Shown here in pieces: positions 451 through 24,124 of a DNA stretch of 26,338 nt (its first letter is position 1; every line of letters begins with the position of its first letter). A program made the translations under genes and the position numbers. The stretch is taken from NCBI GenBank assembly GCA_018894995.1, contig JAHIOZ010000098.1, forward strand, positions 1 to 26,338. The letters run 5' to 3'. The DNA is from Patescibacteria group bacterium. Its GTDB lineage: Bacteria > Patescibacteriota > Minisyncoccia > Phycocordibacterales > UBA12079. The notes beneath the pieces were generated by a model. It was not told the DNA's origin. It ran no database searches and saw nothing but the letters and a program-made list of their open reading frames with translations.

Positions 451-480
451 TCCTTTGAACTTGGACTCTTTGTCTCTTTG

Positions 481-530
481 ACCCTTGGTCATTCCAACGA
501 AAGTTGGAGTGATCAGGGGTTTTGTTTTGT
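481..530 (+). terminator. Stem-loop with GAAA tetraloop and T-tract (intrinsic terminator and/or DGR cis hairpin)
   Basis: CCCTTGGTCATTCCAAC-GAAA-GTTGGAGTGATCAGGGG gives 17 bp with 3 G.U pairs, followed by TTTTGTTTTGT. Confidence 0.7.
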
Positions 531-763
531 AAAAAATAAAATATTTTGATATTCTAAACAATGAAGTTTTTGTATTTGTCTCGGTCACGGCTTAGGCGGA
601 AGATTTTGAACATATTAAACATCAGAATTGTTTCGGTTAAGGCTTGAGCAAGCGTATGTTTGGTATGTTGTTGAAAAAATAATAAGGTGGAAAATTTGGT
701 TTGGTTATGTCATAATTGCCACCATCTTATTCATCATTACAAAGATGCAAAAGATAAATTCAT

Positions 764-837
764 GGAGGCATTGGTGTAGGAGTAACACTACAGCCTGTGG
801 AGCTGTCATCGTGGGTGCAAATCCCGCATGCCTCCCA
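764..837 (+). tRNA. tRNA-His (GTG) with encoded G-1
   Basis: Acceptor stem GAGGCAT/ATGCCTC, G-1 (764) opposite discriminator C835, D stem GTGT/ACAC, anticodon stem ACAGC/GCTGT with loop CTGTGGA, T stem GTGGG/CCCGC. Only CA follows the discriminator. Confidence 0.92.
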
Positions 838-857
838 GTAAAAAGTTCCCAATAAAA

Positions 858-884
858 AAAAGCTGGCCACCGGGGTCAGCTTTT
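858..884. terminator. Probable bidirectional terminator between tRNA-His and the convergent ORF
   Basis: AAAAGCTGGCC...GGTCAGCTTTT hairpin with A- and T-tracts. Confidence 0.6.
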
Positions 885-905
885 GGGTTGTGGGCGGGAG
901 TGATT

Positions 906-1229
906 TCAAAATTTTCTTATTTTCGCCAACATTTCGTCGGTTATTATTCTGACTACCTCACTGCTACTTAGTTTTTTGTAACCGGAAAAACGGTATTCTG
1001 TTAATTCGCAACAGATACACATTCTTCTTGGATAGTAAGATGTAGCCACTGCAATCATTGACTCTCCTCTTGGTTTTTGGCAGGTTTCAATAACTTCTTT
1101 GTGAGGGCAAGTTTCCCTCAGCAATACGCGATCTGATGCCACATTTTTCTCCAAAAGTTTTATCTCAGCTGAATTTTTTAGAATTCTGTTTTTAATTTCT
1201 AACAATTCGGATTCAGTTATTTCAGACAT
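906..1229 (-). CDS. Hypothetical protein, possible Zn-binding (CPH...CxCC)
   Basis: 107-aa ORF with AAGGAG SD upstream of ATG; downstream hairpin. Confidence 0.7.
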   Translation of the reverse strand: MSEITESELLEIKNRILKNSAEIKLLEKNVASDRVLLRETCPHKEVIETCQKPRGESMIAVATSYYPRRMCICCELTEYRFSGYKKLSSSEVVRIITDEMLAKIRKF

Positions 1230-1391
1230 TTTTCACTCCTTTGTTTTGGTTATTGTTTTTATACTTTTCCTGATTCGTATTATAGGTAAATACTTTTAAA
1301 AAGCAAATTATTTAAAAAACAATTTTGCTTGCTTTAACAAGCCCTAATACTAACCTCTGATACTCAATTTTTTGGCTCTGTCAAAAAATTG

Positions 1392-1419
1392 TTGACTTAT
1401 TTTTTAAAAAGAGTAGTAT
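1392..1419 (+). promoter_or_regulatory. Candidate sigma70 promoter for secE-nusG
   Basis: TTGACT-16 bp-TAGTAT. Confidence 0.4.
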
Positions 1420-1603
1420 ATTGACATAAGACCCGAAAGGGTTTTTAAAAATGAAAAATTTTATCTAATTAGCACATAACTTTGTCGTTTTAGAAAAAAT
1501 TTTAGAAATATTTGGTTTTTGTAAAGTTTTACAAAGCTTCTAACTAAATTTAAAAATCAGTTTGGCTGTCGGCTATGAGCTTTCAGCTATAAGCTTAAAA
1601 AAT

Positions 1604-1783
1604 ATGAAATTAATAGACTACATTAAAGATACAAAAAGCGAGTTAAAACATGTAACTTGGCCGACTAAACAACAGGCGGTTTGGTTTACAATTTTGGTTA
1701 TTATCATTTCCTTAGTTGTTTCTTTTTACCTCGGATTTTTTGATTTTATTTTTTCATTGGGAATTGAAAAATTTATCATTTAA
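1604..1783 (+). CDS. secE: Preprotein translocase subunit SecE
   Basis: ELKHVTWPT motif plus a single TM helix, upstream of nusG. ATG at 1604 preferred over TTG at 1562. Confidence 0.93.
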   Translation: MKLIDYIKDTKSELKHVTWPTKQQAVWFTILVIIISLVVSFYLGFFDFIFSLGIEKFII

Positions 1784-1919
1784 TATTTTTTAATTTTTGG
1801 AGAAATTAAAAAATCACGGAAGGTCGCGGAACGAACGCAGAATTACGCAGAAATAAAAATTTGCTTCGCAAATTTTTATCCATAAATTCTAAATCATAAT
1901 TTAAAATCTAAACAAACAT

Positions 1920-2492
1920 ATGGACAATCAACAAGAAGAACAAAAAATAACAAAACAGGATTCCAGTGCCGGCAGAAATTGGTATGCAATCCATACTTAT
2001 GCCGGGTATGAAAATGCTGTTGTGAGAAATCTTAAACAAAGAATTGAGTCTTTGTGTATGCAAGACTTGATTTTTGATGTGGTTGTTCCGGTGGAAAAAA
2101 AGATTAAAATTAAAGGAGGAAAAAGAGTTGAAGAACAAGAAAAAATTTACCCCGGATATATTTTGGTTGATATGATTGTAACCGATGATTCTTGGTATGT
2201 TGTCAGAAATACACCGAGAGTTACAGGTTTCGTAGGAGCGGGAGTTAACCCGGTTCCTGTGAGTGAGGAAGAAATGTCCGAGCTTACCAAAAGAATGAAT
2301 ATGGATGTCACTAAACATGAGGTTGATTTGCAAATTGACGAAGCGGTTATCATCACCGACGGACCGTTTAAAGATACAGAGGGTAAGGTTATAGAAATTG
2401 ACGAGAAGAGCGGAAAAGTTAAAGTTCTTATTTCAATGTTCGGAAGAGAAACTCCAGCTGAGTTGGACTTTTTACAAATAAAGAGAATTTAG
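1920..2492 (+). CDS. nusG: Transcription termination/antitermination factor NusG
   Basis: WYAIHTYAGYE N-terminus, IYPGYILV, VRNTPRVTGFVG, C-terminal KOW domain (GPFKD...FGRETP). Confidence 0.97.
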   Translation: MDNQQEEQKITKQDSSAGRNWYAIHTYAGYENAVVRNLKQRIESLCMQDLIFDVVVPVEKKIKIKGGKRVEEQEKIYPGYILVDMIVTDDSWYVVRNTPRVTGFVGAGVNPVPVSEEEMSELTKRMNMDVTKHEVDLQIDEAVIITDGPFKDTEGKVIEIDEKSGKVKVLISMFGRETPAELDFLQIKRI

Positions 2493-2527
2493 AAAAACAA
2501 AGAGTGAAGCGATTATGTTTTTCTTAA

Positions 2528-2799
2528 CCCTGTTAAGTTCAAATTTCGCAGAAATTTGAAACATTTAAACTTTTAGCAGTTTGTCATTTGGGTGGTCAGG
2601 TAGCCTGTTGTGTTTACCCAACACTCTGATAATCAATAAAAGTTTAAATGATACTTAACTGGGGTATGGTTAAATAAATTTATTGAGTTAATTAAAATTT
2701 AGAGTATTGCGGGTTAGAAAGTAGCCCTAGTGAAATATCTTTTATTTTTTCTTAAAAATAAAAGTTTCATTTGCTTGAGGCAAATGAATTTCACAGGGC
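2528..2799. other. Two nested multi-stem inverted-repeat structures in the nusG-rplK spacer
   Basis: Stem pairs 2528-2538/2653-2663, 2538-2560, 2562-2575/2637-2650 (perfect 14 bp), and a three-way junction at 2724-2799. Confidence 0.6.
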
Positions 2800-2835
2800 C
2801 ATAATTTTCTAATTCGCTTCGCTCATAAGAAAATT

Positions 2836-3258
2836 ATGGCAAAAAAAGCAATAAAAAAATTAAAATTACAAATTCCTGCAGGTAAAGCTACACCGGCTCC
2901 TCCTGTTGGACCGGCTTTGGGACAAGCCGGAATTAATATCGGTGAATTCGTAAATCAATTTAACGGTGCGACTAAAGAAATGATGGGGGATATCATCCCG
3001 GTTATAATTTCTGTTTATGAAGACAGAACTTTTGATTTTGTTCTTAAGACTCCGCCGGCATCAAGATTGATTTTGAAAAAAATGGGAATCGCAAAAGGTT
3101 CCGGCAAAAATCTTACAAAGAAAGCTGGGACTATTACAAAAAATCAAATTAGAGAAATTGCGGAACAAAAAATGGCTGATTTAAGCGCGAATGATATTGA
3201 AGCGGCGATGAAGATTATTGAAGGGACAGCTAGGAGTATGGGCGTCGAAGTTAAGTGA
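2836..3258 (+). CDS. rplK: 50S ribosomal protein L11
   Basis: [21 protein letters not shown]...GTARSMG signature. Confidence 0.98.
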
Positions 3259-3329
3259 TTTTTTAAAAAAACAAAAATGCCGACTTAGGTCGGCATTTTT
3301 GTTTTTTTAAAAAATCACTTAACTTCGAC
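3244..3329. terminator. 41-bp perfect inverted repeat (terminator-like) overlapping the rplK 3' end
   Basis: 3244-3284 is the exact reverse complement of 3289-3329; loop TTAG. Confidence 0.8.
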
Positions 3330-3334
3330 CGCAA

Positions 3335-3368
3335 AAGGTCGCGGAACGAACGCGGAATTACGCGGAAA
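3335..3368 (+). repeat. 10-nt-period repeat CGCRGAACGAACGCRGAATTACGCRGAAA; copies at 1820-1853, 17515-17551 (degenerate) and 18498-18527 (minus strand)
   Basis: Direct sequence comparison. Confidence 0.8.
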
Positions 3369-3388
3369 CGACGACGAGACGACGACGA

Positions 3389-3466
3389 AACGACGAAAGG
3401 CTTTGCCTTTCGTCGTTAACGATAAAACTCTGCTATCGTCTTTGCGAGCCGAAGGCGTGGCAATCT
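3389..3466. repeat. GACG...CGTC triloop hairpin followed by a CGTC-tagged REP-like element
   Basis: AACGACGAAAGGC-TTT-GCCTTTCGTCGTT (3389-3417); CGTCTTTGCGAG-CCGAAGG-CGTGGCAATCT (3437-3466). Confidence 0.75.
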
Positions 3467-3583
3467 AGGAGTTTCGTAATAGTTTTCTTGACTCCGCCCT
3501 CGCAAATAACTATACTCAACGCAGGTTAGTAGTATTGAAAAAGGAAATTTTTTCCTAAAAAATATAAAAGAAAGGAGACTTGG

Positions 3584-4126
3584 ATGAACAAAAAACAAAC
3601 AATAACAACAAAGAGAATTGATTGGGACACACTTTTTATGCTCCATGTTCGTGCTTATGCGATGAGGAGTGCCTGTGTAAATTACAAGGTTGGTGCGGTT
3701 TTTACCAAAGACAATAGAGTTCTGACGGGAGGTTTTAATGGACCACCGAGAAAGGAACCGAATTGTTGCGAGGTTGGTTGTGCAAAGCGTGATGCAGGCG
3801 GAAAAATAATGCCTGCCGGCTCAGGTCTTTGCAGGGGTGCTCATGCTGAAATGAACAGTTTGGCAAATGCTTGCATTGGCGGTGTTGGTTTAAGCGGTGT
3901 GACAGTTTATTGTTCTTTTAGTCCTTGCTGGGATTGTGCCAAACATTTGGTTAATCTTGGTATCTCCCGTTTTGTGTACGAGGTTGAGTATACTGAAGAA
4001 GAAGGTCAGCGAGCCCTTGATTTGCTGAAACGCCGAGGTGTCGAATTGGTTCATTTTACTTTTGACGAATCAGTTTTACTTGATTTTCAGAATTTTAACC
4101 CCGTAGCAAAGGAGAAAAGCAAATGA
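3584..4126 (+). CDS. dCMP (deoxycytidylate) deaminase-family protein
   Basis: HAE and PCWDC zinc motifs, KVGAV, GFNGPP; AAGGAG SD. Confidence 0.9.
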   Translation: MNKKQTITTKRIDWDTLFMLHVRAYAMRSACVNYKVGAVFTKDNRVLTGGFNGPPRKEPNCCEVGCAKRDAGGKIMPAGSGLCRGAHAEMNSLANACIGGVGLSGVTVYCSFSPCWDCAKHLVNLGISRFVYEVEYTEEEGQRALDLLKRRGVELVHFTFDESVLLDFQNFNPVAKEKSK

Positions 4127-5002: not shown

Positions 5003-6760
5003 ATGATTAAAAACGAATTGGAAAAAATAATAAAAAAAGCTTTGGCGGATTTGGGAATTGAAGCCGAGAGTGTTTGCTTGGATCATCCTGTTGATTTGGC
5101 TATGGGAGATTATTCAACAAATGTCGCGATGGTTTATGCAAAAAAAATCGGACAAAATCCCCGCGAACTCGCCGAAAAAATCGCCGAGAAAATCAACTTG
5201 GAAACCCGGTTTCCAAGTGAAATGTTGGAAAAGGTGGAACCGGCTGGGGCTGGTTTTATAAATTTTTATTTGAGCAAAGACTTTTTTGAAAATAATATAG
5301 CTGAAATTTTAAAAGCGGGGGAGAAATATGGAAGCAATGAAAGTTTGAAAGGGCAGAAAATTTTGATTGAGCACAGCTCACCAAACTTGTTTAAAGAATT
5401 TCATATTGGGCATATGGTTAATAATTCAATCGGTGAAGCAATTACAAGAATTATCAAAAATTCCGGTGCTGATGTAAAAGTCATTTCTTATCCGTCGGAT
5501 GTTGGGCTTGGGATTGCAAAAACTATTTGGGCTATAAAAAACTATGATATTACTGGATTAGAAAAAGATTTTTTATTTAACAATAGTAAAATACTAGATG
5601 AAAAAATTAAAATTCTGGGAGTTGCTTACACTTTAGGTAATTTAGCGTATAAAGATCACGGAAATGAAAAACAAGAAATAGATGAAATAAACAAAAAAAT
5701 TTATAACAAATCTGACGGGGAAATAAATAAAATTTATAACGAAGGTAAAAAATTAACTCTCGAACACTTCGAGATCATCGTTAAAAAGTTAGGTTCAAAA
5801 TTTGATGATTATATTTTTGAAAGTGAGGCAGGAGAAATTGGGAAAGAAATTGTAAAAGAAAAAATAGGAGAAGTTTTTGAGGAAAGCGAAGGGGCTGTGG
5901 TATTCAAAGGAGAAAAATATGGTTTACATACTCGCGTTTTTTTAAATTCTCAAGGGTTACCAACTTATGAAACAAAAGATTTAGGTTTGCTCAAGTTAAA
6001 ATTTGATAAATATCATCCAGATAAGTCTATTTTTATAACAGACAATGAGCAGAATGAATACATGAAAGTCATGTTGAAAGCAGGAGAACAGATAAATTCT
6101 GCTTGGGCAGAAAAAACAAAACATATTGGACATGGACGGCTTCGTTTTCTAGACGGGCGACTTTCTTCAAGGGAAGGTAATGTTTTGACAGCACTTAAAC
6201 TTCTCGGCGACATCCAGATGAAAGTTTGGGATAAAATGAATTCTTCAAAAAATATAACTAAAAACGAAATATCAAAAGCTTCCTTTTGTGTTTCTGGTGG
6301 GGCTGTAAAATACGCAATATTAAAATCATCAACGGGAAAAAATATTATTTTTGATAAAGAAAAAGCTTTAGCTTTAGAGGGGAACACCGGACCATACTTG
6401 CAATACACCTATGCTCGAGCGAAATCGGTTATTGAAAAAGCAAAAAAAGAAAACATCGCAACTTGGAAACCGGGTTTCCAAGTGGAATTAAGGCTGTTGA
6501 ACAGCCTTAGTGAGGTTGAAAAATTGCTTTATCGTTTTCCGGAAGTTGTTGAGAGGGCGGGGGAGGAATATGAACCGCATTATATCGCGACTTATTTGTT
6601 TGAATTGGCACAGGCTTTTAACTCTTATTATGGGAATAATAAAATTGCGGACAAAGAAGATGAAAATGCACCTTACAAAGTTGCATTGACGGAAGCGGTT
6701 GCTCAAACAATCAAAAACGGACTTTGGCTTTTGGGGATTGAGGCGCCGGAAAAACTATAA
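5003..6760 (+). CDS. argS: Arginine--tRNA ligase
   Basis: GDYSTNVAM, GAGFINF, SPNLFKEFHIGH (HIGH), GPYLQYTYAR, C-terminal LLGIEAPEKL. Confidence 0.97.
   Translation: MIKNELEKIIKKALADLGIEAESVCLDHPVDLAMGDYSTNVAMVYAKKIGQNPRELAEKIAEKINLETRFPSEMLEKVEPAGAGFINFYLSKDFFENNIAEILKAGEKYGSNESLKGQKILIEHSSPNLFKEFHIGHMVNNSIGEAITRIIKNSGADVKVISYPSDVGLGIAKTIWAIKNYDITGLEKDFLFNNSKILDEKIKILGVAYTLGNLAYKDHGNEKQEIDEINKKIYNKSDGEINKIYNEGKKLTLEHFEIIVKKLGSKFDDYIFESEAGEIGKEIVKEKIGEVFEESEGAVVFKGEKYGLHTRVFLNSQGLPTYETKDLGLLKLKFDKYHPDKSIFITDNEQNEYMKVMLKAGEQINSAWAEKTKHIGHGRLRFLDGRLSSREGNVLTALKLLGDIQMKVWDKMNSSKNITKNEISKASFCVSGGAVKYAILKSSTGKNIIFDKEKALALEGNTGPYLQYTYARAKSVIEKAKKENIATWKPGFQVELRLLNSLSEVEKLLYRFPEVVERAGEEYEPHYIATYLFELAQAFNSYYGNNKIADKEDENAPYKVALTEAVAQTIKNGLWLLGIEAPEKL
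5196..5218. repeat. 23-nt palindrome in frame inside argS (copy 1)
   Basis: ACTTGGAAACC-C-GGTTTCCAAGT. Confidence 0.85.
6461..6483. repeat. 23-nt palindrome in frame inside argS (copy 2)
   Basis: ACTTGGAAACC-G-GGTTTCCAAGT. Confidence 0.85.
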
Positions 6761-6804
6761 TTCAGTTTTTAGTTTTTAGTTGATAGTTTTTAGCATAAAA
6801 AATT

Positions 6805-6835
6805 AAAATCGTAAAAGCGAAGCTTTTGCGGTTTT
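6805..6835. terminator. GC-GAA-GC hairpin after argS; related perfect copy at 25832-25870
   Basis: AAAATCGTAAAAGC-GAA-GCTTTTGCGGTTTT. Confidence 0.65.
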
Positions 6836-6882
6836 TGATTGTCGGCTTTTTAAATTTCTCATTTTAATGTATTATTTCTTTT

Positions 6883-9800
6883 ATGGATAATGAAAAAAAT
6901 ATAGATAATAAATCCGAAACTGCCCAAAGCGAGGAAAAGATTTTGGAGTTTTGGCGGGAGAATAAAATTTTTGAAAAGTCGTTGGACTCTAAACCTTCGG
7001 ACGGGCGAGGAAAAGAAGCGCCCAAAGGTGATTTTGTTTTTTACGACGGTCCGCCTTTTGCGACTGGTTTGCCTCACTATGGGCATATTTTGGCTGGAAC
7101 AATCAAAGATATTATTCCGCGTTATCAGACAATGCTCGGCAAAAAAGTTTCTCGTCGTTGGGGTTGGGATTGTCATGGTTTGCCGATTGAAAATTTGATT
7201 GAAAAGGAACTCAATTTAAAAACTAAACAAGATATTTACGATTACGGAGTGGAGAAATTCAATGAAGCTGCCAAACAAAGCGTACTTCGTTATGATGTTG
7301 ATTGGAAAAAGATTATTCCGCGAACGGGTCGCTGGGTGGATATGGGTTCAAGTTATCAAACAATGGATACTTCTTATTCTGAATCCATTTGGCATATTTT
7401 TAAAACTATTTATGATAAAAATTTAATTTACGAAGGACATAAAGCGATGCATCTTTGTCCTCGTTGTGAGACAACTCTTTCAAACTTTGAAGTTAATCAG
7501 GGGTATAAAGATATTAAAGATTTAACGGCGACGGTGAAATTCAAACTTGATGTCGGACAAAAAATTGGTGATTTTGTTGCAGATGATAATACTTACATTT
7601 TGGCGTGGACGACTACGCCGTGGACTTTGCCTGGAAATGTTGCACTCGCAGTAAATGATGGAATCATTTATGCTCGAATTCAAAAATCAAATATCAAAAA
7701 TCAAAATGAAAATGCAAAATTAAAAAATAACGAGACATATATTGTTGCTAAGGAAAGAATTGTTGGTGTTGTTGGTGATGAAGAATACGAAATAATTGAA
7801 GAATTCAAAGGTTCAGAATTGATTGGAAAATCTTACAAACCACTTTTTGATTATTATTTAAAAGATGAAAATTTGGAAAATCGCGAGAATGCCCGCCCGC
7901 AACGCCTGAGCGAGGCTCAGCCTAGCGATGGCGGGCGGGGTTGGAAAATTTACGGTGCGGATTTTGTGACTACTGAAGATGGAACTGGAATTGTTCACAT
8001 CGCTCCTGCTTTTGGTTCTGACGATATGGAGTTGGGGAAAAAAGAAAATTTACCGTTTATTCAGCATGTTTCAGTTGATGGAAAATTCAAACCGGAAGTT
8101 GGTGATGGCTTGGCTGGGTTGTATGTAAAACCTAAAGATGATTCTGCGAATGGACAAGACCATATGTCGACCGATATTGAAATAATAAAATTGTTGGCTA
8201 AAAAAGAAGCTCTGTTTTCAAAAGAAAAAGTCACTCACTCTTATCCTCATTGTTGGAGATGTGAAACACCTCTTTTAAATTACGCGACTTCGTCGTGGTT
8301 TTTGAAAGTTACGGGAATTAAAGATGAAATGATTAAAGTTAATCAAGGTGTTAATTGGGTGCCGGAAAATATGCGAGATGGAAGATTTGGAAAGTGGCTT
8401 GAAGGAGCGAGAGACTGGGCGATTTCAAGGACAAGATTTTGGGGGGCACCGTTGCCTGTTTGGAGGTGCCAAACTGGGAAATTCGAAACCTTAAATTCTA
8501 AATCCGAAACAAATTCAAATGGCCAAAATTTAAATGTTCAAAAAAATATCGGTTGCGGGGCGATGAGGGTTGTTGGTTCAATTGCCGAGTTGAAAGAGAA
8601 TTTGCCGAAAAGAAATAATATTTTTGTGATGCGACACGGAGAGGCGGACAACAACACTAAAAATGTAATCAGTACTCAAAAACTCAACGAGCATCATTTA
8701 ACCGAGAAAGGAAAAGAGCAGGTTTTGGGGGCGATTGGAAATTTAAAAAATCAAAAAATTGATTTAATTATTTCTTCTCCGTTTGTAAGAACAGTTGAAA
8801 CAGCTGAATTGGTAGCTGAAGGTTTGGGTTTAAAAAAAGAAGAAATTATTTTTGACGAGAGAATCGGAGAAATTAATTTGGGGGATATGGACGGAAAGAG
8901 TAATAAAGATTATCACAAATATTTTGAATCCCAATTGGAAAAATTCACTAAAACTCCACCAAACGGAGAAAGTTTGACCGACTTGAAAAAACGAGTCGCG
9001 GAATTTCTTTTTGAAATTAATGAAAAGTATGAAGGCAAAAATATTTTGGTTGTAACTCACGAATATTCTTTTTGGATGATGATGACCGTTTCTGATGCTT
9101 TGACGGATACTCAATCTGTAAAAATGAAAGACGATGAAAATATTGTTCAAAATGCGGAAGTCAGAGATTTGGATTTCAGAAGTTTACCTCATAACAAAAA
9201 TTACGAGATTGATTTGCATATGCCTTACATCGATGAGATTAAATTCAAATGTGCTTGCGGTGGAGAAATGAAAAGAATTCCTGAAGTGTTTGACTGTTGG
9301 TTTGAATCGGGGGCGATGCCTTATGCTTCCAATCACTATCCTTTTGAAAATTTGGATAAATTTAATCCTGAAAAAGAAATCGGTTTTCCGGCAGATTTTA
9401 TTGCCGAGGGTCAAGACCAAACACGAGGGTGGTTTTACACTTCGCTTGTTTTGGCAACCGCTTTGTTTGGAAAAACTTCTTATAAAAATGTAATTGTAAA
9501 CGGAATGGTTTTGGCGGAGGACGGAAAGAAAATGTCAAAGAGTTTGAAAAATTATCCTGACATTAATTATATTTTGGATAAATATGGAGCTGATGCGATG
9601 CGATATTATATGATAAATTCGCCGATTGTTCGGGCGGAAGATTTGAATTTCTCGGAAAAAGGAGTGGACGAAGTTTTGAAAAAAATTATTTTGAAAGTAA
9701 AAAATGTTTATTCGTTTTATGAATTGTATAAAGATGCTTTAAAAGAAAAAATTAATCCGCAGGATAGTAAAAATGTCTTGGATATTTGGATTTTATCCAG

Positions 9801-10659
9801 ATTGAATCAGTTGAACAATGAAATCACAACAGGATTAAATAACTACGAATTAGATCGAGCTTCACGACCGATTATGGATTTTGTGGATGATTTGTCTACT
9901 TGGTATATCCGTCGTTCTCGTGACAGGTTTAAGGGTGAAGATGAAAAAGATAAAAATTTTGCTTTGGCGACAACACAATTTGTATTGGTGGAATTTTCAA
10001 AATTGATTGCTCCGTTTATGCCGTTTTTGTCAGAAGAACTCTGGCAGAAAATTGAAAATGAAAATCTCAAAATGGAAAATGATAATGTAAAATTTAAAAT
10101 TACATCGGTGCATTTGCAGGATTGGCCAAAAGCGGGAAATGTTGATGAAAAAGTTTTGGAAGATATGAAAAAAGTTAGAGGGGTTGTTTCAATGGTATTA
10201 GAAGTAAGGGCAGAAGCTGGTTTGAAAGTTCGTCGACCGTTGGGTAAAGTTACAATTTATGGTTTATCTTATGAAAAAATAGATAAACAATTGCTGGATA
10301 TTATAAAAAATGAAGTTAATGTAAAAGATGTTGTTTTTGAAAAAGGAGATAGTAGAGTAGAGCTTGATGAAAAAATTACACCCGAATTAAAAATTGAGTG
10401 GCAATACCGAGAACTTTTTAGACATATTCAAAGAATGAGAAAAGATGCCAGACTTGTGCCAAGTGATGTTGTCGGCTTAATCGTTGAAACTTCCGATGAC
10501 GGAGAAAAATTGATTAAGAAATTTGAAGAAGATTTGAAAAAAACCACTGGAATTAAAGAAATTAAATTTGAGAAAAATATTGAAGATTTTGAAAATTCAA
10601 TCGTGCAAGGAGGAATTAAAATCGATGATTTGGAATTCAAACTGAGAATTGAAAAATAA
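6883..10659 (+). CDS. ileS: Isoleucine--tRNA ligase, type 2, with an inserted histidine-phosphatase domain
   Basis: FYDGPPFATGLPHYGH, GWDCHGLP, WTTTPWTLPGN, GTGIVHIAP, KMSKS; RHG domain at about aa 577-766. Confidence 0.97.
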   Translation: MDNEKNIDNKSETAQSEEKILEFWRENKIFEKSLDSKPSDGRGKEAPKGDFVFYDGPPFATGLPHYGHILAGTIKDIIPRYQTMLGKKVSRRWGWDCHGLPIENLIEKELNLKTKQDIYDYGVEKFNEAAKQSVLRYDVDWKKIIPRTGRWVDMGSSYQTMDTSYSESIWHIFKTIYDKNLIYEGHKAMHLCPRCETTLSNFEVNQGYKDIKDLTATVKFKLDVGQKIGDFVADDNTYILAWTTTPWTLPGNVALAVNDGIIYARIQKSNIKNQNENAKLKNNETYIVAKERIVGVVGDEEYEIIEEFKGSELIGKSYKPLFDYYLKDENLENRENARPQRLSEAQPSDGGRGWKIYGADFVTTEDGTGIVHIAPAFGSDDMELGKKENLPFIQHVSVDGKFKPEVGDGLAGLYVKPKDDSANGQDHMSTDIEIIKLLAKKEALFSKEKVTHSYPHCWRCETPLLNYATSSWFLKVTGIKDEMIKVNQGVNWVPENMRDGRFGKWLEGARDWAISRTRFWGAPLPVWRCQTGKFETLNSKSETNSNGQNLNVQKNIGCGAMRVVGSIAELKENLPKRNNIFVMRHGEADNNTKNVISTQKLNEHHLTEKGKEQVLGAIGNLKNQKIDLIISSPFVRTVETAELVAEGLGLKKEEIIFDERIGEINLGDMDGKSNKDYHKYFESQLEKFTKTPPNGESLTDLKKRVAEFLFEINEKYEGKNILVVTHEYSFWMMMTVSDALTDTQSVKMKDDENIVQNAEVRDLDFRSLPHNKNYEIDLHMPYIDEIKFKCACGGEMKRIPEVFDCWFESGAMPYASNHYPFENLDKFNPEKEIGFPADFIAEGQDQTRGWFYTSLVLATALFGKTSYKNVIVNGMVLAEDGKKMSKSLKNYPDINYILDKYGADAMRYYMINSPIVRAEDLNFSEKGVDEVLKKIILKVKNVYSFYELYKDALKEKINPQDSKNVLDIWILSRLNQLNNEITTGLNNYELDRASRPIMDFVDDLSTWYIRRSRDRFKGEDEKDKNFALATTQFVLVEFSKLIAPFMPFLSEELWQKIENENLKMENDNVKFKITSVHLQDWPKAGNVDEKVLEDMKKVRGVVSMVLEVRAEAGLKVRRPLGKVTIYGLSYEKIDKQLLDIIKNEVNVKDVVFEKGDSRVELDEKITPELKIEWQYRELFRHIQRMRKDARLVPSDVVGLIVETSDDGEKLIKKFEEDLKKTTGIKEIKFEKNIEDFENSIVQGGIKIDDLEFKLRIEK
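7891..7938. repeat. GC-rich 48-nt imperfect palindrome in frame inside ileS
   Basis: CCCGCCCGC...CTGAGC-GAG-GCTCAG...GCGGGCGG; encodes ARPQRLSEAQPSDGGR. Confidence 0.75.
8611..9180 (+). other. Histidine phosphatase (PGM/CobC-like) domain nested in IleRS
   Basis: R584-H585-G586, SSPFVR636T, E663, VVTH726. Confidence 0.85.
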
Positions 10660-10873: not shown

Positions 10874-11572
10874 ATGATTTACAGACACAAACATTTTCAA
10901 TTGGACACAAAAAGCAGAAAAGTTTTTGACCAAAACGGGAAAGAATTGATGATAACTGGTAATGCTTTTAGATTGCTTGCTTTTCTTTGTGAACACAAAA
11001 ATGCAACAATCACCGAAATAGGGGAATATTTGGATCACGCTAAAGAATATACCGAAAATCATATTCGTCAGTACAGATACAAAATAAAATCAATTATAGG
11101 AGAAGAAATCATCGATTATAAAAATTCAATTTATTCAATTGTCGGTGATATTGAAACCGTTGAAAAACTCAACTTGGAACTCCGAGTTCCAAGTAAAACA
11201 GGAAAAGACGACCGTATTACGGATTTATTACACCCTAATAGTTTAATATTTGGCATAAGAATGAAAAATATCAGCAAAAAACCGGCGATAATCGTATCAA
11301 TTTTATTATTACTCACATTTTTCCCGTGGGCTTATGGTTATTATACGGTTTTGCGATGGGCGGTAAGTTTGGTTTCAATTTATTACATAATCGGTTTTTA
11401 CAGCAAAACAAAAGTTTTTGATTTCAAAATCTGGACACTTGTTGCCATCGCCGTCCTGTTCAATCCAATCGCTCCGATTTTTTTGCAAAGTAAAACAGTT
11501 TGGGGATTTTTTGACATCATAGTCGCCGGATTTTTCGTTTATTTGATAATTAAAACTAAAGAATTGAAATAA
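10874..11572 (+). CDS. N-terminal OmpR-like winged-helix domain fused to a DUF6804-like membrane domain
   Basis: FQLDTKSRKV...FRLLAFL...IRQYRYKIK wHTH pattern; C-terminal AYGYYTVLRW...LFNPIAPI...W..D hydrophobic domain. Confidence 0.65.
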   Translation: MIYRHKHFQLDTKSRKVFDQNGKELMITGNAFRLLAFLCEHKNATITEIGEYLDHAKEYTENHIRQYRYKIKSIIGEEIIDYKNSIYSIVGDIETVEKLNLELRVPSKTGKDDRITDLLHPNSLIFGIRMKNISKKPAIIVSILLLLTFFPWAYGYYTVLRWAVSLVSIYYIIGFYSKTKVFDFKIWTLVAIAVLFNPIAPIFLQSKTVWGFFDIIVAGFFVYLIIKTKELK

Positions 11573-11903: not shown

Positions 11904-12590
11904 ATGAAAAAGGAAAATTTTAAAAATGCTTATCAATTCAAAGTTTTGTTAGAAGGAGCGAAACCGCCGATTTGGAGAAGAATACAAGTTCCTGAAAATT
12001 TTAATTTTGAAGATTTGCACAAAACGATTCAACTGGCAATGGGTTGGTGTGATTGCCATTTACATCAATTTATAAATGTTGATCCAAGTCAAAATTATGG
12101 AAATAGAAAATTTATTAAAATACCGCACCCTGATGATTTTGATTTTGGCTCTGAAAAAACTTTTGATGAAAGGAAGGAAAAAATTTTTGATTGGTTTTTT
12201 TTGGACAAAGACGGTAAATCTAAGATGAAGTATGAGTATGATTTTGGCGATGGTTGGGAACATATGGTTACTCTTGAAAAAATTTTATCTGAGGAGAAGG
12301 GTGTTAAATATCCCCGTGTTGTAAAAGGAAAGGGTGCTTGCCCTCCTGAAAATGTTGGGGGTATTTGGGGTTATATGGATATTGTGGAAGCGATGAAAAA
12401 TCCAAAAAGCAAAGAAAGTCAAAAGTTTTTTCAAGAAATCTATGGCAGTTTTAAAGAATTTAAAGATTGGATGGAAGAGTTTGCTTGCGTTGATTTGGGT
12501 GAATTTGACCCAGAAAAATATGAAATTGAAGACGATGGTTTTTTGGAGTTAAAAGGGTATATTGGCATGAACGATTATATTGGGGAATAA
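11904..12590 (+). CDS. Plasmid pRiA4b ORF3-family protein
   Basis: IWRRIQVP...LH..IQ.AMGW.D.HLH.F, YEYDFGDGWEH, ACPPENVGG.WGY. Confidence 0.88.
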   Translation: MKKENFKNAYQFKVLLEGAKPPIWRRIQVPENFNFEDLHKTIQLAMGWCDCHLHQFINVDPSQNYGNRKFIKIPHPDDFDFGSEKTFDERKEKIFDWFFLDKDGKSKMKYEYDFGDGWEHMVTLEKILSEEKGVKYPRVVKGKGACPPENVGGIWGYMDIVEAMKNPKSKESQKFFQEIYGSFKEFKDWMEEFACVDLGEFDPEKYEIEDDGFLELKGYIGMNDYIGE

Positions 12591-16066: not shown

Positions 16067-17512
16067 ATGAATAAAAAAGAACAAGATAACAAAAATTTGA
16101 ATTCACAAAATGAATCGGACAAGATCCTAAATTTGCAAAGCAAATCGGACAAGATGGAAAAAATAGTTTCTTTGGCAAAGAGAAGAGGTTTTGTTTTTCC
16201 GTCTTCAGAAATTTATGGCGGTTTTGCCGGTGTTTATGATTTTGGACCAATGGGAGTTGAATTGGAAAATAATATAAAAAATCACTGGTGGAAATGGATG
16301 GTTCAAAAAAGAAGAGATATTGTTGGGTTGGATTCGGGAATTTTTATGAATCCAAAAATTTGGGAAGCTTCGGGACACACCAAAGGTTTTTCTGACCCGA
16401 TGGCGGAGTGCAAGGAATGCAATACAAGAATTAGAGTTGATAAAATTTTGGAAGAAATTGGAATTATCGCTGACGAAAAAATGTCTGAAGAAGAAATCAA
16501 TAAATTGTTTGATGAGAATAGAGATAAAATAAAATGTTCAAAATGTGGCAAGAAAAATTTTTCAAAGGTTCAAAAATTTAATCTTTTGGTTCAATCAAAC
16601 CTCGGAGATTTTACTGAGAAAGGCGACAACCCCGCTTATTTAAGAGGGGAGACTTGTCAGGGTATTTATGTAAACTTTTCAAATGTTGTTGATTCAACTC
16701 ATATGAAGTTGCCTTTTGGAATTGCCCAAATTGGTAAAGCTTTTAGAAATGAAATTTCTCCGCGACAGTTTTTGTTCAGAGGGAGAGAGTTTGAACAGAT
16801 GGAAATGCAATATTTTACTCATCCGGAAGACGAAATGAAAGAATACGAAAAATTGAAAGAGTATCGCTGGAAAGCAGTTTTGGATTTGGGATTAAGAGAA
16901 GAAAATCTTCGTTGGAAAAAACACGAGAATTTGGTTTTTTATGCAAAAGACGCTTGGGATATTGAATATAATTTCCCTTGGGGTTTTGATGAATTGGAGG
17001 GGGTGCATGCACGCGGAAATTACGACTTAACTCAACATTCTGAAGGAAGCGGAAAAACGCAAGATTATTATGACCAAGAAAAAAACGAAAGATTTATTCC
17101 GCATATTATAGAATCTTCCGGCGGAGTTGGGCGCTATGTTTTTGCGGTTTTGAATGATGCTTATACTGAAGAGGAAGTAAATGGAGAGATGAGGGTAGTT
17201 TTGAAATTAGACAAAAAAATTGCTCCTGTAAAAGTTGCTGTGTTGCCGTTGTCTAAAAAAGATGAATTATCAAAACCAGCTTTGGAACTTTTTGAAAAAT
17301 TGAATGAAAATTTTATTTGTCAGTATGATGAAACCCAGTCAATCGGGAAGAGATACAGAAGGCAAGACGAAATTGGCACCCCTTATTGCGTCACTTTTGA
17401 TTTTGATTCGCTTGAAGATAATTCTGTAACTGTTCGTGACAGAGACACAATGCAACAGGACAGGATTAAGATTGATGAGTTGGTTGGATATTTGAAAGAG
17501 AGATTGAGTTGA
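16067..17512 (+). CDS. glyQS: Glycine--tRNA ligase (alpha2, GlyQS type)
   Basis: AKRRGFVFPSSEIYGG, LRGETCQG, IGKAFRNEISPRQFLFR.REFEQME, SIGKRYRRQDEIGTP. Confidence 0.97.
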   Translation: MNKKEQDNKNLNSQNESDKILNLQSKSDKMEKIVSLAKRRGFVFPSSEIYGGFAGVYDFGPMGVELENNIKNHWWKWMVQKRRDIVGLDSGIFMNPKIWEASGHTKGFSDPMAECKECNTRIRVDKILEEIGIIADEKMSEEEINKLFDENRDKIKCSKCGKKNFSKVQKFNLLVQSNLGDFTEKGDNPAYLRGETCQGIYVNFSNVVDSTHMKLPFGIAQIGKAFRNEISPRQFLFRGREFEQMEMQYFTHPEDEMKEYEKLKEYRWKAVLDLGLREENLRWKKHENLVFYAKDAWDIEYNFPWGFDELEGVHARGNYDLTQHSEGSGKTQDYYDQEKNERFIPHIIESSGGVGRYVFAVLNDAYTEEEVNGEMRVVLKLDKKIAPVKVAVLPLSKKDELSKPALELFEKLNENFICQYDETQSIGKRYRRQDEIGTPYCVTFDFDSLEDNSVTVRDRDTMQQDRIKIDELVGYLKERLS

Positions 17513-22567: not shown

Positions 22568-24124
22568 ATGGAAAATCTAAACAAAAAATTTTATATTACA
22601 ACCGCCATTGATTATGTGAATGGCAAACCTCATTTAGGCCACGCTTTGGAAAAAATACAGGCGGATGTTTTGGCTCGTTACAAAAGATTGATACTAGGAG
22701 ACGATGATATATATTTTTTGACAGGTGCAGATGAGCATGGGTCTAAAATATTTAGAACAGCTGAAAAACAAGGTAAAGAAGTTCAATCTTTTGTCGATGA
22801 AAACACAGAAGTTTTTAGAAATCTTTGGAAGACATTGAATATTTCAAATAATGATTTTATCAGGACTTCCGATAAAAAAAGGCATCGGGTTGGTGCTCAG
22901 GCTTTGTGGAACAAAATTTTTGAAGCCGGTGATTTGGAGAAAGCAAAATACAGCGGTTTGTATTGTGTTGGTTGCGAAGCTTTTGTCACGGAAAAAGATT
23001 TGATTGACGGAAAATGTCCCAATCACGATACTGCACCGGAAAAAATAGAAGAAGAAAATTATTTTTTTAAAATTTCCAAATATATTGAAGATGTAAAATC
23101 AAAAATTGAATCTGATGAATTGCAAATAATTCCTGCCGGCAGAAAAAATGAGATTTTGGCGATGATTGAGAGGGGGGTGGAAGATATCAGTTTTTCTCGT
23201 CCTAAAGAAAAATTGAGTTGGGGAGTTGATATTCCCAATGATGATTCTCAAGTAATGTATGTCTGGTGTGACGCTTTGGCAAACTATATTTCTGCTTTAG
23301 GTTTTGGTTCAGATGGTGATGATAATTTTAAAAAATATTGGCCGGCTGATGTTCATATGATTGGAAAAGACATTTTGCGTTTTCATGCAATTGTTTGGCC
23401 TGCGATGTTGTTGTCGGCAGGGTTGCCCTTGCCTAAAAAAATATTTGTTCACGGATTTTTGACTTCTGATGGTAAAAAAATGTCTAAAAGTTTAGGTAAT
23501 GTTATTGACCCGGTTGATTTGATTAACGAGTACGGAACGGAAGCTTTGAGGTATTTTCTCTTGCGAGAAGTAACTCCTTTTGAAGACGGAGATATCACTT
23601 TAGAAAAATTTAAAGAAGCTTATAATGCCAATCTCGCCAACGGTTTGGGAAATTTGGTGAGTAGAATTTTAACAATGACACAAAATTCAAACGTTAATAT
23701 AGCTATTGCGGAAAGTAATAAAGATGTATTGTTTGAGCAGTTTAAGACAGATAAATTTTCAGGAATTAGAAATACTGAAACTGGAGCTGGTGGAGAAAAT
23801 TTTATAGAAAAAAAGATGCCGAGCTATCTTTTTTATGAAAAAGAACACTTTTTTATTTTTGGTGATACACTTGATTTTTTTGATTTTCAAAAAGCAATGG
23901 ATCGTATTATGGCTGATGTAAAATCAATGGATGTTTTTATTACTAGAACAGAGGTATACAGAAAAGATTCAAAAGATAGAGATAAAAATCTAATGCGACT
24001 TTTAATCAATTTAAAAAATGTAGCTTTGTCTTTGCAACCTTTTATGCCCGAAACTTCTGAAAAAATTCAACATCTAATTAAAGAAAACAAATCTCCGGAG
24101 ACACCTTTATTTAAAAGGAAGTAG
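22568..24124 (+). CDS. metG: Methionine--tRNA ligase (short form, no C-terminal Trbp domain)
   Basis: YITTAIDYVNGKPHLGH, GADEHG, CVGCE...CP.H knuckle, YVWCDAL.NY, KMSKS. Confidence 0.97.
   Translation: MENLNKKFYITTAIDYVNGKPHLGHALEKIQADVLARYKRLILGDDDIYFLTGADEHGSKIFRTAEKQGKEVQSFVDENTEVFRNLWKTLNISNNDFIRTSDKKRHRVGAQALWNKIFEAGDLEKAKYSGLYCVGCEAFVTEKDLIDGKCPNHDTAPEKIEEENYFFKISKYIEDVKSKIESDELQIIPAGRKNEILAMIERGVEDISFSRPKEKLSWGVDIPNDDSQVMYVWCDALANYISALGFGSDGDDNFKKYWPADVHMIGKDILRFHAIVWPAMLLSAGLPLPKKIFVHGFLTSDGKKMSKSLGNVIDPVDLINEYGTEALRYFLLREVTPFEDGDITLEKFKEAYNANLANGLGNLVSRILTMTQNSNVNIAIAESNKDVLFEQFKTDKFSGIRNTETGAGGENFIEKKMPSYLFYEKEHFFIFGDTLDFFDFQKAMDRIMADVKSMDVFITRTEVYRKDSKDRDKNLMRLLINLKNVALSLQPFMPETSEKIQHLIKENKSPETPLFKRK

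Follow-up and report, generated by a model that had tools for sequence, protein, structure and literature searches.

We show that the ileS gene of a Patescibacteria group bacterium, located on the 26,338-nucleotide contig JAHIOZ010000098.1 (the window, by which we mean this whole stretch), encodes a predicted bifunctional polypeptide in which a type-2 isoleucyl-tRNA synthetase (IleRS) contains a small but complete histidine phosphatase, akin to PhoE, PspA and GpgP, inserted in the zinc knuckle of the CP3 subdomain. The open reading frame (ORF) extends from 6883 to 10659 on the forward strand and its stop-free translation has 1258 amino acid residues. The nested phosphatase keeps all its catalytic residues and is apparently active.

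The nested phosphatase and its host enzyme

The first-pass annotation of the window had read an intact histidine phosphatase inside the synthetase, and a Pfam scan bears this out: His_Phos_1 (PF00300) matched residues 580-735 with an E-value of 2.9e-33 and 115.6 bits, against a cut-off of 21.7. The domain belongs to branch 1 of the family and occupies positions 8620-9180 (forward strand), its folded part reaching to about residue 766. The RHG motif with the nucleophilic histidine corresponds to R584-H585-G586 (8632-8640), the second phosphate-binding arginine to R636 (8788-8790), the proton-donor glutamate to E663 (8869-8871), which is followed by I-N-L-G, and the second catalytic histidine to H726 (9058-9060), followed by E-Y-S. 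All are encoded on the forward strand and invariant in 110 of 110 homologues, and a translation check found each residue at the position and coordinate first assigned to it.

An AlphaFold2 model of residues 560-795, built with 80 homologues in the input, shows a mean predicted local distance difference test (pLDDT) value of 92 and a predicted template modelling (pTM) score of 0.87. It predicts the alpha/beta/alpha fold of the family, and the 50 Foldseek matches to PDB entries listed, of 300 at E ≤ 0.001, were all family members. The nearest solved folds were PspA (4IJ5/4IJ6), GpgP (4PZ9/6S2Q), PhoE (1H2E), HFP (9MMH) and CobC, and the short Schizosaccharomyces pombe cofactor-dependent phosphoglycerate mutase (dPGM; 1FZT) was also among them; by sequence, the nearest solved relative of the insert is PhoE (E 1e-13). 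The interval originally proposed for the domain, 8611-9180, corresponds to residues 577-766 and coincides with the folded domain of the model.

The host protein (6883-10659, forward strand) matches the NCBIfam equivalog model TIGR00392 for ileS with 849.7 bits, exceeding the cut-off of 621.4. It shows the class I motifs HYGH (residues 65-68) and KMSKS (residues 883-887), as well as the CP1 editing motifs TTTPWT at residue 243 and GTGIVH at residue 367. The closest solved structures are those of Priestia megaterium IleRS2 (8C8U, E 5e-203), Thermus thermophilus IleRS (1ILE) and eukaryotic cytoplasmic enzymes. A tblastn search of the source bin, which comprises 891 kb in 186 contigs, found no second ileS, the other matches being ValRS, LeuRS and MetRS; as the bin is 80% complete, the single-copy status of ileS rests on an incomplete genome. 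Since only one ileS is present in the bin, the window gene must supply the IleRS activity of the cell. The region encoding the CP1 editing domain also shows a GC-rich in-frame segment, at 7891-7938 (residues 337-352) and at about 6994-7010, encoding ...ARPQRLSEAQPSDGGRG, which breaks the alignment with 8C8U between query residues 325 and 352.

In T. thermophilus IleRS the zinc knuckle is part of the CP3 subdomain, which connects CP2 to the second half of the Rossmann fold, and both the fold and the zinc content of CP3 vary among IleRS lineages (PMC7191050). In the window IleRS, the cysteine pairs C529/C558 and C790/C792 flank the insert. The alignment with 8C8U ends at query residue 533 and restarts at residue 768, and about 15 residues of 8C8U (463-478) correspond to about 235 residues of the window enzyme (533-768), which are made up of a low-complexity spacer and the phosphatase. 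The first pair of the knuckle (8467-8556, forward strand) is itself split: most homologues show a CxxC at this place, whereas in the window lineage a 28-residue low-complexity spacer rich in Q, N, S, T and K (8470-8553, residues 530-557) separates the two cysteines, and only the nearest relatives P0002, P0004 and P0008 also have such a spacer. It is followed by the entry linker GAMRVVGSIAELKENLPKRNN (8557-8619, forward strand), which includes the invariant N578 and has a column identity of 0.52 in the alignment of 110 homologues. Downstream of the phosphatase, the chain returns into CP3 through the segment ...PHNKNYEIDLHMPYIDEIKFKCAC (9181-9258, forward strand), which carries the second cysteine pair according to both the residue check and the alignment; in the return segment H779, P781 and D784 are invariant, and C790 and C792 are at least 90% conserved. 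The KMSKS loop of the synthetase (9529-9543, forward strand) lies 117 residues past the insert.

The flanks named in the first-pass annotation, CGAMRVVGSIAEL and DLHMPYIDEIKFKCACGGEMKR, were found at residues 558-570 and 777-798, and the residue positions agree with its placement of the insert between the zinc-binding cysteine pairs, upstream of KMSKS. Its proposal of a bifunctional synthetase stands as far as the architecture goes: an intact histidine phosphatase is nested in a genuine IleRS, and the two active sites appear competent as judged from their sequence. The targets it named for the phosphatase (tRNA ends, nucleotides or proteins) are conjectures.

Conservation, spread and origin of the domain

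The distribution of the architecture was searched with residues 540-800, a query that covers both junctions. It returned 524 proteins; among the 120 listed, all show both IleRS domains together with PF00300, and nearly all have 1050-1325 residues, with a few partial frames. The sources listed are many independent assemblies from many Parcubacteria lineages (Campbell-, Nomura-, Wolfe-, Taylor-, Lloyd- and Yonathbacteria, among others), and the nested architecture is also found in genomes assembled as one contig, such as G077. The insertion site is identical across the 110 full-length homologues aligned, in which residues N578, R584, H585, G586, G610, S632, R636, E663, E696, R704 and H726 are invariant. 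Mean column identity in this alignment is 0.64 for the insert, 0.66 for the anticodon-binding domain and 0.70 for the editing domain. There is a solid case that the insert, conserved about as well as the anticodon-binding domain, is selectively maintained. Furthermore, complete genomes of very reduced size have retained the domain, and it is the sole PF00300 domain found in G232 and in the genome of the window.

These data bear on whether the architecture could be an assembly chimera or a catalytically dead structural relic. The source genome is a fragmented bin of 186 contigs, and nothing else was found in favor of such an origin. Against it, the same junctions are present in more than 500 proteins of independent assemblies, one-contig genomes included, the catalytic set is invariant and the fold is predicted with confidence (pLDDT 92). 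Both the chimera and the dead domain, which the first-pass annotation had named as outcomes that would refute its reading, are ruled against, and we consider an artefact or relic next to inconceivable.

The domain is not confined to IleRS. In a sample of 251 genomes of the class, each at least 80% complete, PF00300 was found nested in ValRS at the position homologous to that of the IleRS insert in three genomes, G071, G088 and G207 (loci L024, L025 and L026; open frames of 928-1211 residues, 840-967 bits with valS models). G071 has a nested phosphatase in both IleRS and ValRS, whereas in G207 a free phosphatase gene sits between argS and ileS, some 900 bases ahead of ileS, and a second copy is nested in ValRS; each of these two genomes contains two synthetase-linked copies. 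The ValRS of the window genome (contig C88) has no insert. IleRS also hosts other guests in its CP1 region: a NUDIX domain at residues 221-337 in L027:2678-6775 (G096) and a GNAT domain at residues 285-415 in P0044, both in enzymes with the CP3 phosphatase, and in L013 an extra segment of about 180 residues, located between the positions matching window residues 267 and 279, for which no Pfam family match was found.

Free-standing relatives were collected by whole-genome searches, as a domain-only word-index search gave seven, too few for comparison, and 20 free-standing small PF00300 genes were sampled from the class set. Seven of them are located directly upstream of an insert-less ileS and transcribed in the same direction, mostly in the order argS-phosphatase-ileS (synteny loci L011, L012, L013, L015, L022 and L038). 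These seven resemble the insert most, with 120-202 bits against the insert profile compared with 53-95 bits for the other sampled genes. In L012, the phosphatase ORF (6755-7309) overlaps the start codon of ileS (7306-10110) by four bases, which suggests translational coupling of the two genes. In L013 (G115), the 1153-residue IleRS (474-3932, reverse strand) has no nested phosphatase; a separate phosphatase gene is found between argS and ileS and is divided from ileS by two further ORFs. In the window, argS (5003-6760, forward strand, Pfam assignment) is directly upstream of ileS, which holds the domain inside, and the same arrangement is present in all sampled genomes of the taxonomic order to which the window belongs.

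A phylogenetic tree of 56 domains groups the nested and the ileS-upstream copies in one clade that excludes the other paralogues, with a Shimodaira-Hasegawa-like approximate likelihood ratio test (SH-aLRT) value of 94, and the domain of the window falls within this ileS-linked clade with moderate support. In the best tree the ValRS copies stand apart from the IleRS clade, and free and nested forms are interleaved. From synteny and tree we infer that the insert belongs to a single phosphatase clade tied to ileS, either as upstream gene or as insert: in some families the phosphatase would be a separate gene between argS and ileS, and in most other families it would lie inside ileS.

With regard to its surroundings, the contig derives from a low-GC genome (29-42% GC in 1-kb steps) and shows four tRNA-synthetase genes on one strand within 20 kb: ArgRS (5003-6760), IleRS (6883-10659), a class II enzyme of the ProRS/ThrRS type (16067-17512) and a MetRS-like ORF (22568-24124). 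Just 3' of ileS, ORFs 10874-11572 and 11904-12590 encode a DUF6804 protein and a plasmid pRiA4b ORF-3-like protein (PF07929, E 4e-55).

Candidate functions and rival explanations

The most obvious metabolic role would be that of a glycolytic stand-in, the nested domain being a dPGM that acts between phosphoglycerate kinase and enolase in a genome without the cofactor-independent enzyme (iPGM). The genome of the window has phosphoglycerate kinase and enolase, no PF01676 or PF10143 mutase was found in it and its sole PF00300 domain is the insert; the top NCBIfam match of the insert is dPGM_arch, below its cut-off, and iPGM_N is absent from eight of the nine sampled genomes of the same order. However, a cross-tabulation of the 251 genomes made by hand shows no complementarity, with PF00300 in 157 of 192 genomes that have iPGM_N (82%) and in 51 of 59 that lack it (86%), and most genomes bearing the nested form also have a full iPGM. 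Three genomes of the same order that are 100% complete, G021, G059 and G232, contain the nested domain, yet no enolase, iPGM/apgM or dPGM was found in them, so part of the order appears to lack lower glycolysis. The dPGM models stay below their cut-offs on the insert (NF038349 dPGM_arch, 93 bits against 225; TIGR01258 pgm_1, 33.9 against 81.7). In dPGM, the substrate-binding residues are R-H-Y-G beside the catalytic glutamate and G-N beside the second histidine. These are absent from the nested domain, where the 110 homologues show I/V-N/D-x-G after E663 and E/N-Y/T-P after H726. Moreover, in two other genomes of the order, G090 and G211, a separate frame scores high enough to reach the cut-off of a dPGM model. 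The missing phosphoglycerate mutase was rejected on distribution, retention in enolase-less genomes, residues and model scores, and such a role for the domain is highly improbable. The frame of G090 (L030:3057-4778, forward strand) is a 574-residue fusion of a D-2-hydroxyacid/phosphoglycerate dehydrogenase-like protein with a bona fide dPGM domain (TIGR01258, 164 bits against 81.7), and that of G211 is a similar frame of 486 residues with a dPGM domain.

We tentatively favor, at somewhat less than even confidence, a translation-linked role that the domain would exert in cis with class Ia synthetases. The domain would be a phosphatase outside central metabolism that works alongside these enzymes and takes a phosphomonoester off a molecule that the synthetase encounters, for instance a tRNA phosphorylated at its 3' end or an adenine nucleotide that arises as a by-product or acts as an inhibitor. 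Nesting in CP3 would tether this activity to the charging enzyme. The reading is suggested by the linkage to ileS across families, by retention in the most reduced genomes and by the exclusion of the obvious metabolic role; it is also suggested by the co-occurrence of two copies in a single genome, both attached to class Ia synthetases, and by a host shared with a Nudix domain.

Several observations weigh against a translation-linked role, and some of them also speak for a passenger. On this reading an independent housekeeping phosphatase, whose gene happened to lie in the argS-ileS operon, would have recombined into a tolerant surface loop of IleRS and gained only co-expression with a strongly expressed essential gene, with no functional tie to aminoacylation. 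PF00300 is absent from 43 of the 251 genomes, so IleRS can do without the domain. As the fold and the zinc content of CP3 differ between IleRS lineages, this structurally variable region is probably permissive and may simply tolerate insertions; the NUDIX and GNAT domains and the segment of about 180 residues are likewise what a permissive host would be expected to carry. A passenger would account equally well for the conserved gene order and for co-expression. In approximately unbiased (AU) tests, neither a single fusion into IleRS (p 0.307) nor descent of the ValRS and IleRS copies from one origin (p 0.455) was rejected, and recurrent, independently selected fusion is therefore undemonstrated; an independent capture by ValRS and repeated fusion into IleRS, which had been considered, were dropped as claims in view of these values. 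On the other side, loss of a stop codon joins genes end to end and cannot place one gene in the middle of another, so a rarer event is needed for an in-frame landing inside ileS. Furthermore, in two very reduced genomes a pair of copies has been retained, both linked to class Ia synthetases, and the housekeeping task that would come to mind first, phosphoglycerate mutase, is excluded. A passenger is a plausible explanation, which we consider only slightly less probable than the translation-linked role.

A more specific form of the translation-linked role, which we judge unlikely, would be repair in cis: before charging, the phosphatase would remove a blocking 2'- or 3'-phosphate from the CCA end of the tRNA or from an adenine nucleotide in the active site. 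In the Nudix-bearing enzymes, the phosphate removed would be the remnant of a pyrophosphate. If this held, the IleRS and ValRS of minimal cells would be self-sufficient against phosphorylating damage or toxins.

The target could also be the synthetase itself, with the domain acting as a protein phosphatase that clears a phosphate put on the KMSKS loop by HipA/HipT-like toxin kinases. The histidine-phosphatase superfamily includes the protein phosphatases SixA, PGAM5 and Sts-1, and HipA and HipT phosphorylate the class I synthetases GltX and TrpS near the KMSKS motif. Both facts speak for such self-repair, as does the location of the insert 117 residues ahead of KMSKS. Nevertheless, the nearest folds are small-molecule phosphatases and HipA_C kinases were found in none of the 251 class genomes, a null result that also counts among the points against a translation-linked role. 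A counter to cell-encoded HipA kinases is unsupported, the kinases countered may be foreign ones, and self-repair of this kind is very unlikely overall.

A link to (p)ppGpp or to tRNA-pyrophosphorylating RelA/SpoT homologues (RSH) was dropped as well. The RelA/SpoT domain PF04607 is present in 196 of the 251 genomes, as long RSH proteins, and PF00300 shows no association with it, being equally frequent in genomes that have PF04607 (164 of 196, 84%) and in those that lack it (44 of 55, 80%); this, too, is a point against the translation-linked role. A complex prediction that paired the L012 free phosphatase with two fragments of the IleRS encoded beside it gave no answer (score 0.00) and is evidence neither way.

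Aminoacyl-tRNA synthetases are among the best-studied enzymes. In a large bacterial radiation the catalytic body of IleRS, and sometimes that of ValRS, has come to include a second enzyme, apparently active, which has persisted through extreme genome reduction. The options for its role are narrowed, the domain being neither the missing glycolytic mutase nor tied to cell-encoded HipA kinases or RelA/SpoT genes. Should the phosphatase act on tRNA or on a ligand of the synthetase, it would represent a new quality-control or repair step in translation. Should it be only a passenger, it would still be a clear case from nature of an essential enzyme accommodating a complete second one, and as such useful for domain-insertion engineering.

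Comparison with known systems

Judged by the nesting of the domain and its place in the tree, the window enzyme is one of the class Ia synthetases of the candidate phyla radiation (CPR) that have a nested or adjacent histidine phosphatase, a kind in print since 2013. In that year, Kantor et al. (mBio, PMC3812714) devoted one descriptive sentence to an "unusual isoleucine-tRNA synthetase" in candidate phylum SR1 and did not analyse where its guest domains sit, how they arose or what they do. As in the window, it is a CPR IleRS interrupted by domains of the phosphoglycerate mutase (histidine phosphatase) family; the SR1 enzyme contains a Nudix domain and two phosphoglycerate mutase-family domains, whereas the window enzyme has a single domain in CP3. 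The L027 IleRS resembles the SR1 enzyme in also having a Nudix domain. Unlike SR1, the genome of the window is of the Parcubacteria type and uses the standard code. Full-text literature searches found no study of the nested architecture beyond that sentence, nor does this architecture feature in a 2026 survey of domain insertions (PMC13114784). The statement of the first-pass annotation that no function had been characterised agrees with these searches, but the architecture itself was already in print (PMC3812714).

The insert shares its fold with PhoE (1EBB/1H2E), the phosphoserine phosphatase PspA (4IJ5), GpgP Rv2419c (4PZ9, 6S2Q), HFP (9MMH) and CobC (6E4B, 6NRU). Compared with these small branch-1 phosphatases, Foldseek E-values range from 6e-14 to 2e-10 with template modelling (TM) scores of 0.6-0.78, and the size of about 190-210 residues and the RHG/R/E/H catalytic set are common to all. 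Sequence identity is 22-27% and none of their NCBIfam models reaches its cut-off on the insert, so no substrate is transferable to it. PhoE, PspA, GpgP, HFP and CobC are free-standing, whereas the phosphatase of the window is nested in a synthetase.

The host aligns over its full length with T. thermophilus IleRS (1ILE/1JZQ) and P. megaterium IleRS2 (8C8U-8C9D), with E-values of about 1e-200. The parts of the knuckle on either side of the gap align, and P. megaterium IleRS2 shows CEGC where the window enzyme has C529...C558. NCBIfam NF040702 (ileS_w_GNAT) is a further curated family in which IleRS hosts an enzyme domain, in this case an N-acetyltransferase. Both the guest enzyme and its site, in the CP1 region, differ from those of the window; P0044 has both GNAT and phosphatase, and the window IleRS, with 294 bits against a cut-off of 1999, is not a member of NF040702.

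Two further tRNA-handling systems offer a parallel. The INS domain of ProRS and the free YbaK/ProXp proteins provide the same hydrolase activity, built-in or separate, and the HD-domain phosphatase of the Escherichia coli CCA-adding enzyme is a precedent for a phosphatase joined to an enzyme that acts on tRNA 3' ends. As in the window family, the activity is found as a neighboring gene or built into a tRNA enzyme; the ProRS INS domain and the HD domain of the CCA-adding enzyme, however, have known substrates and folds other than that of the window phosphatase.

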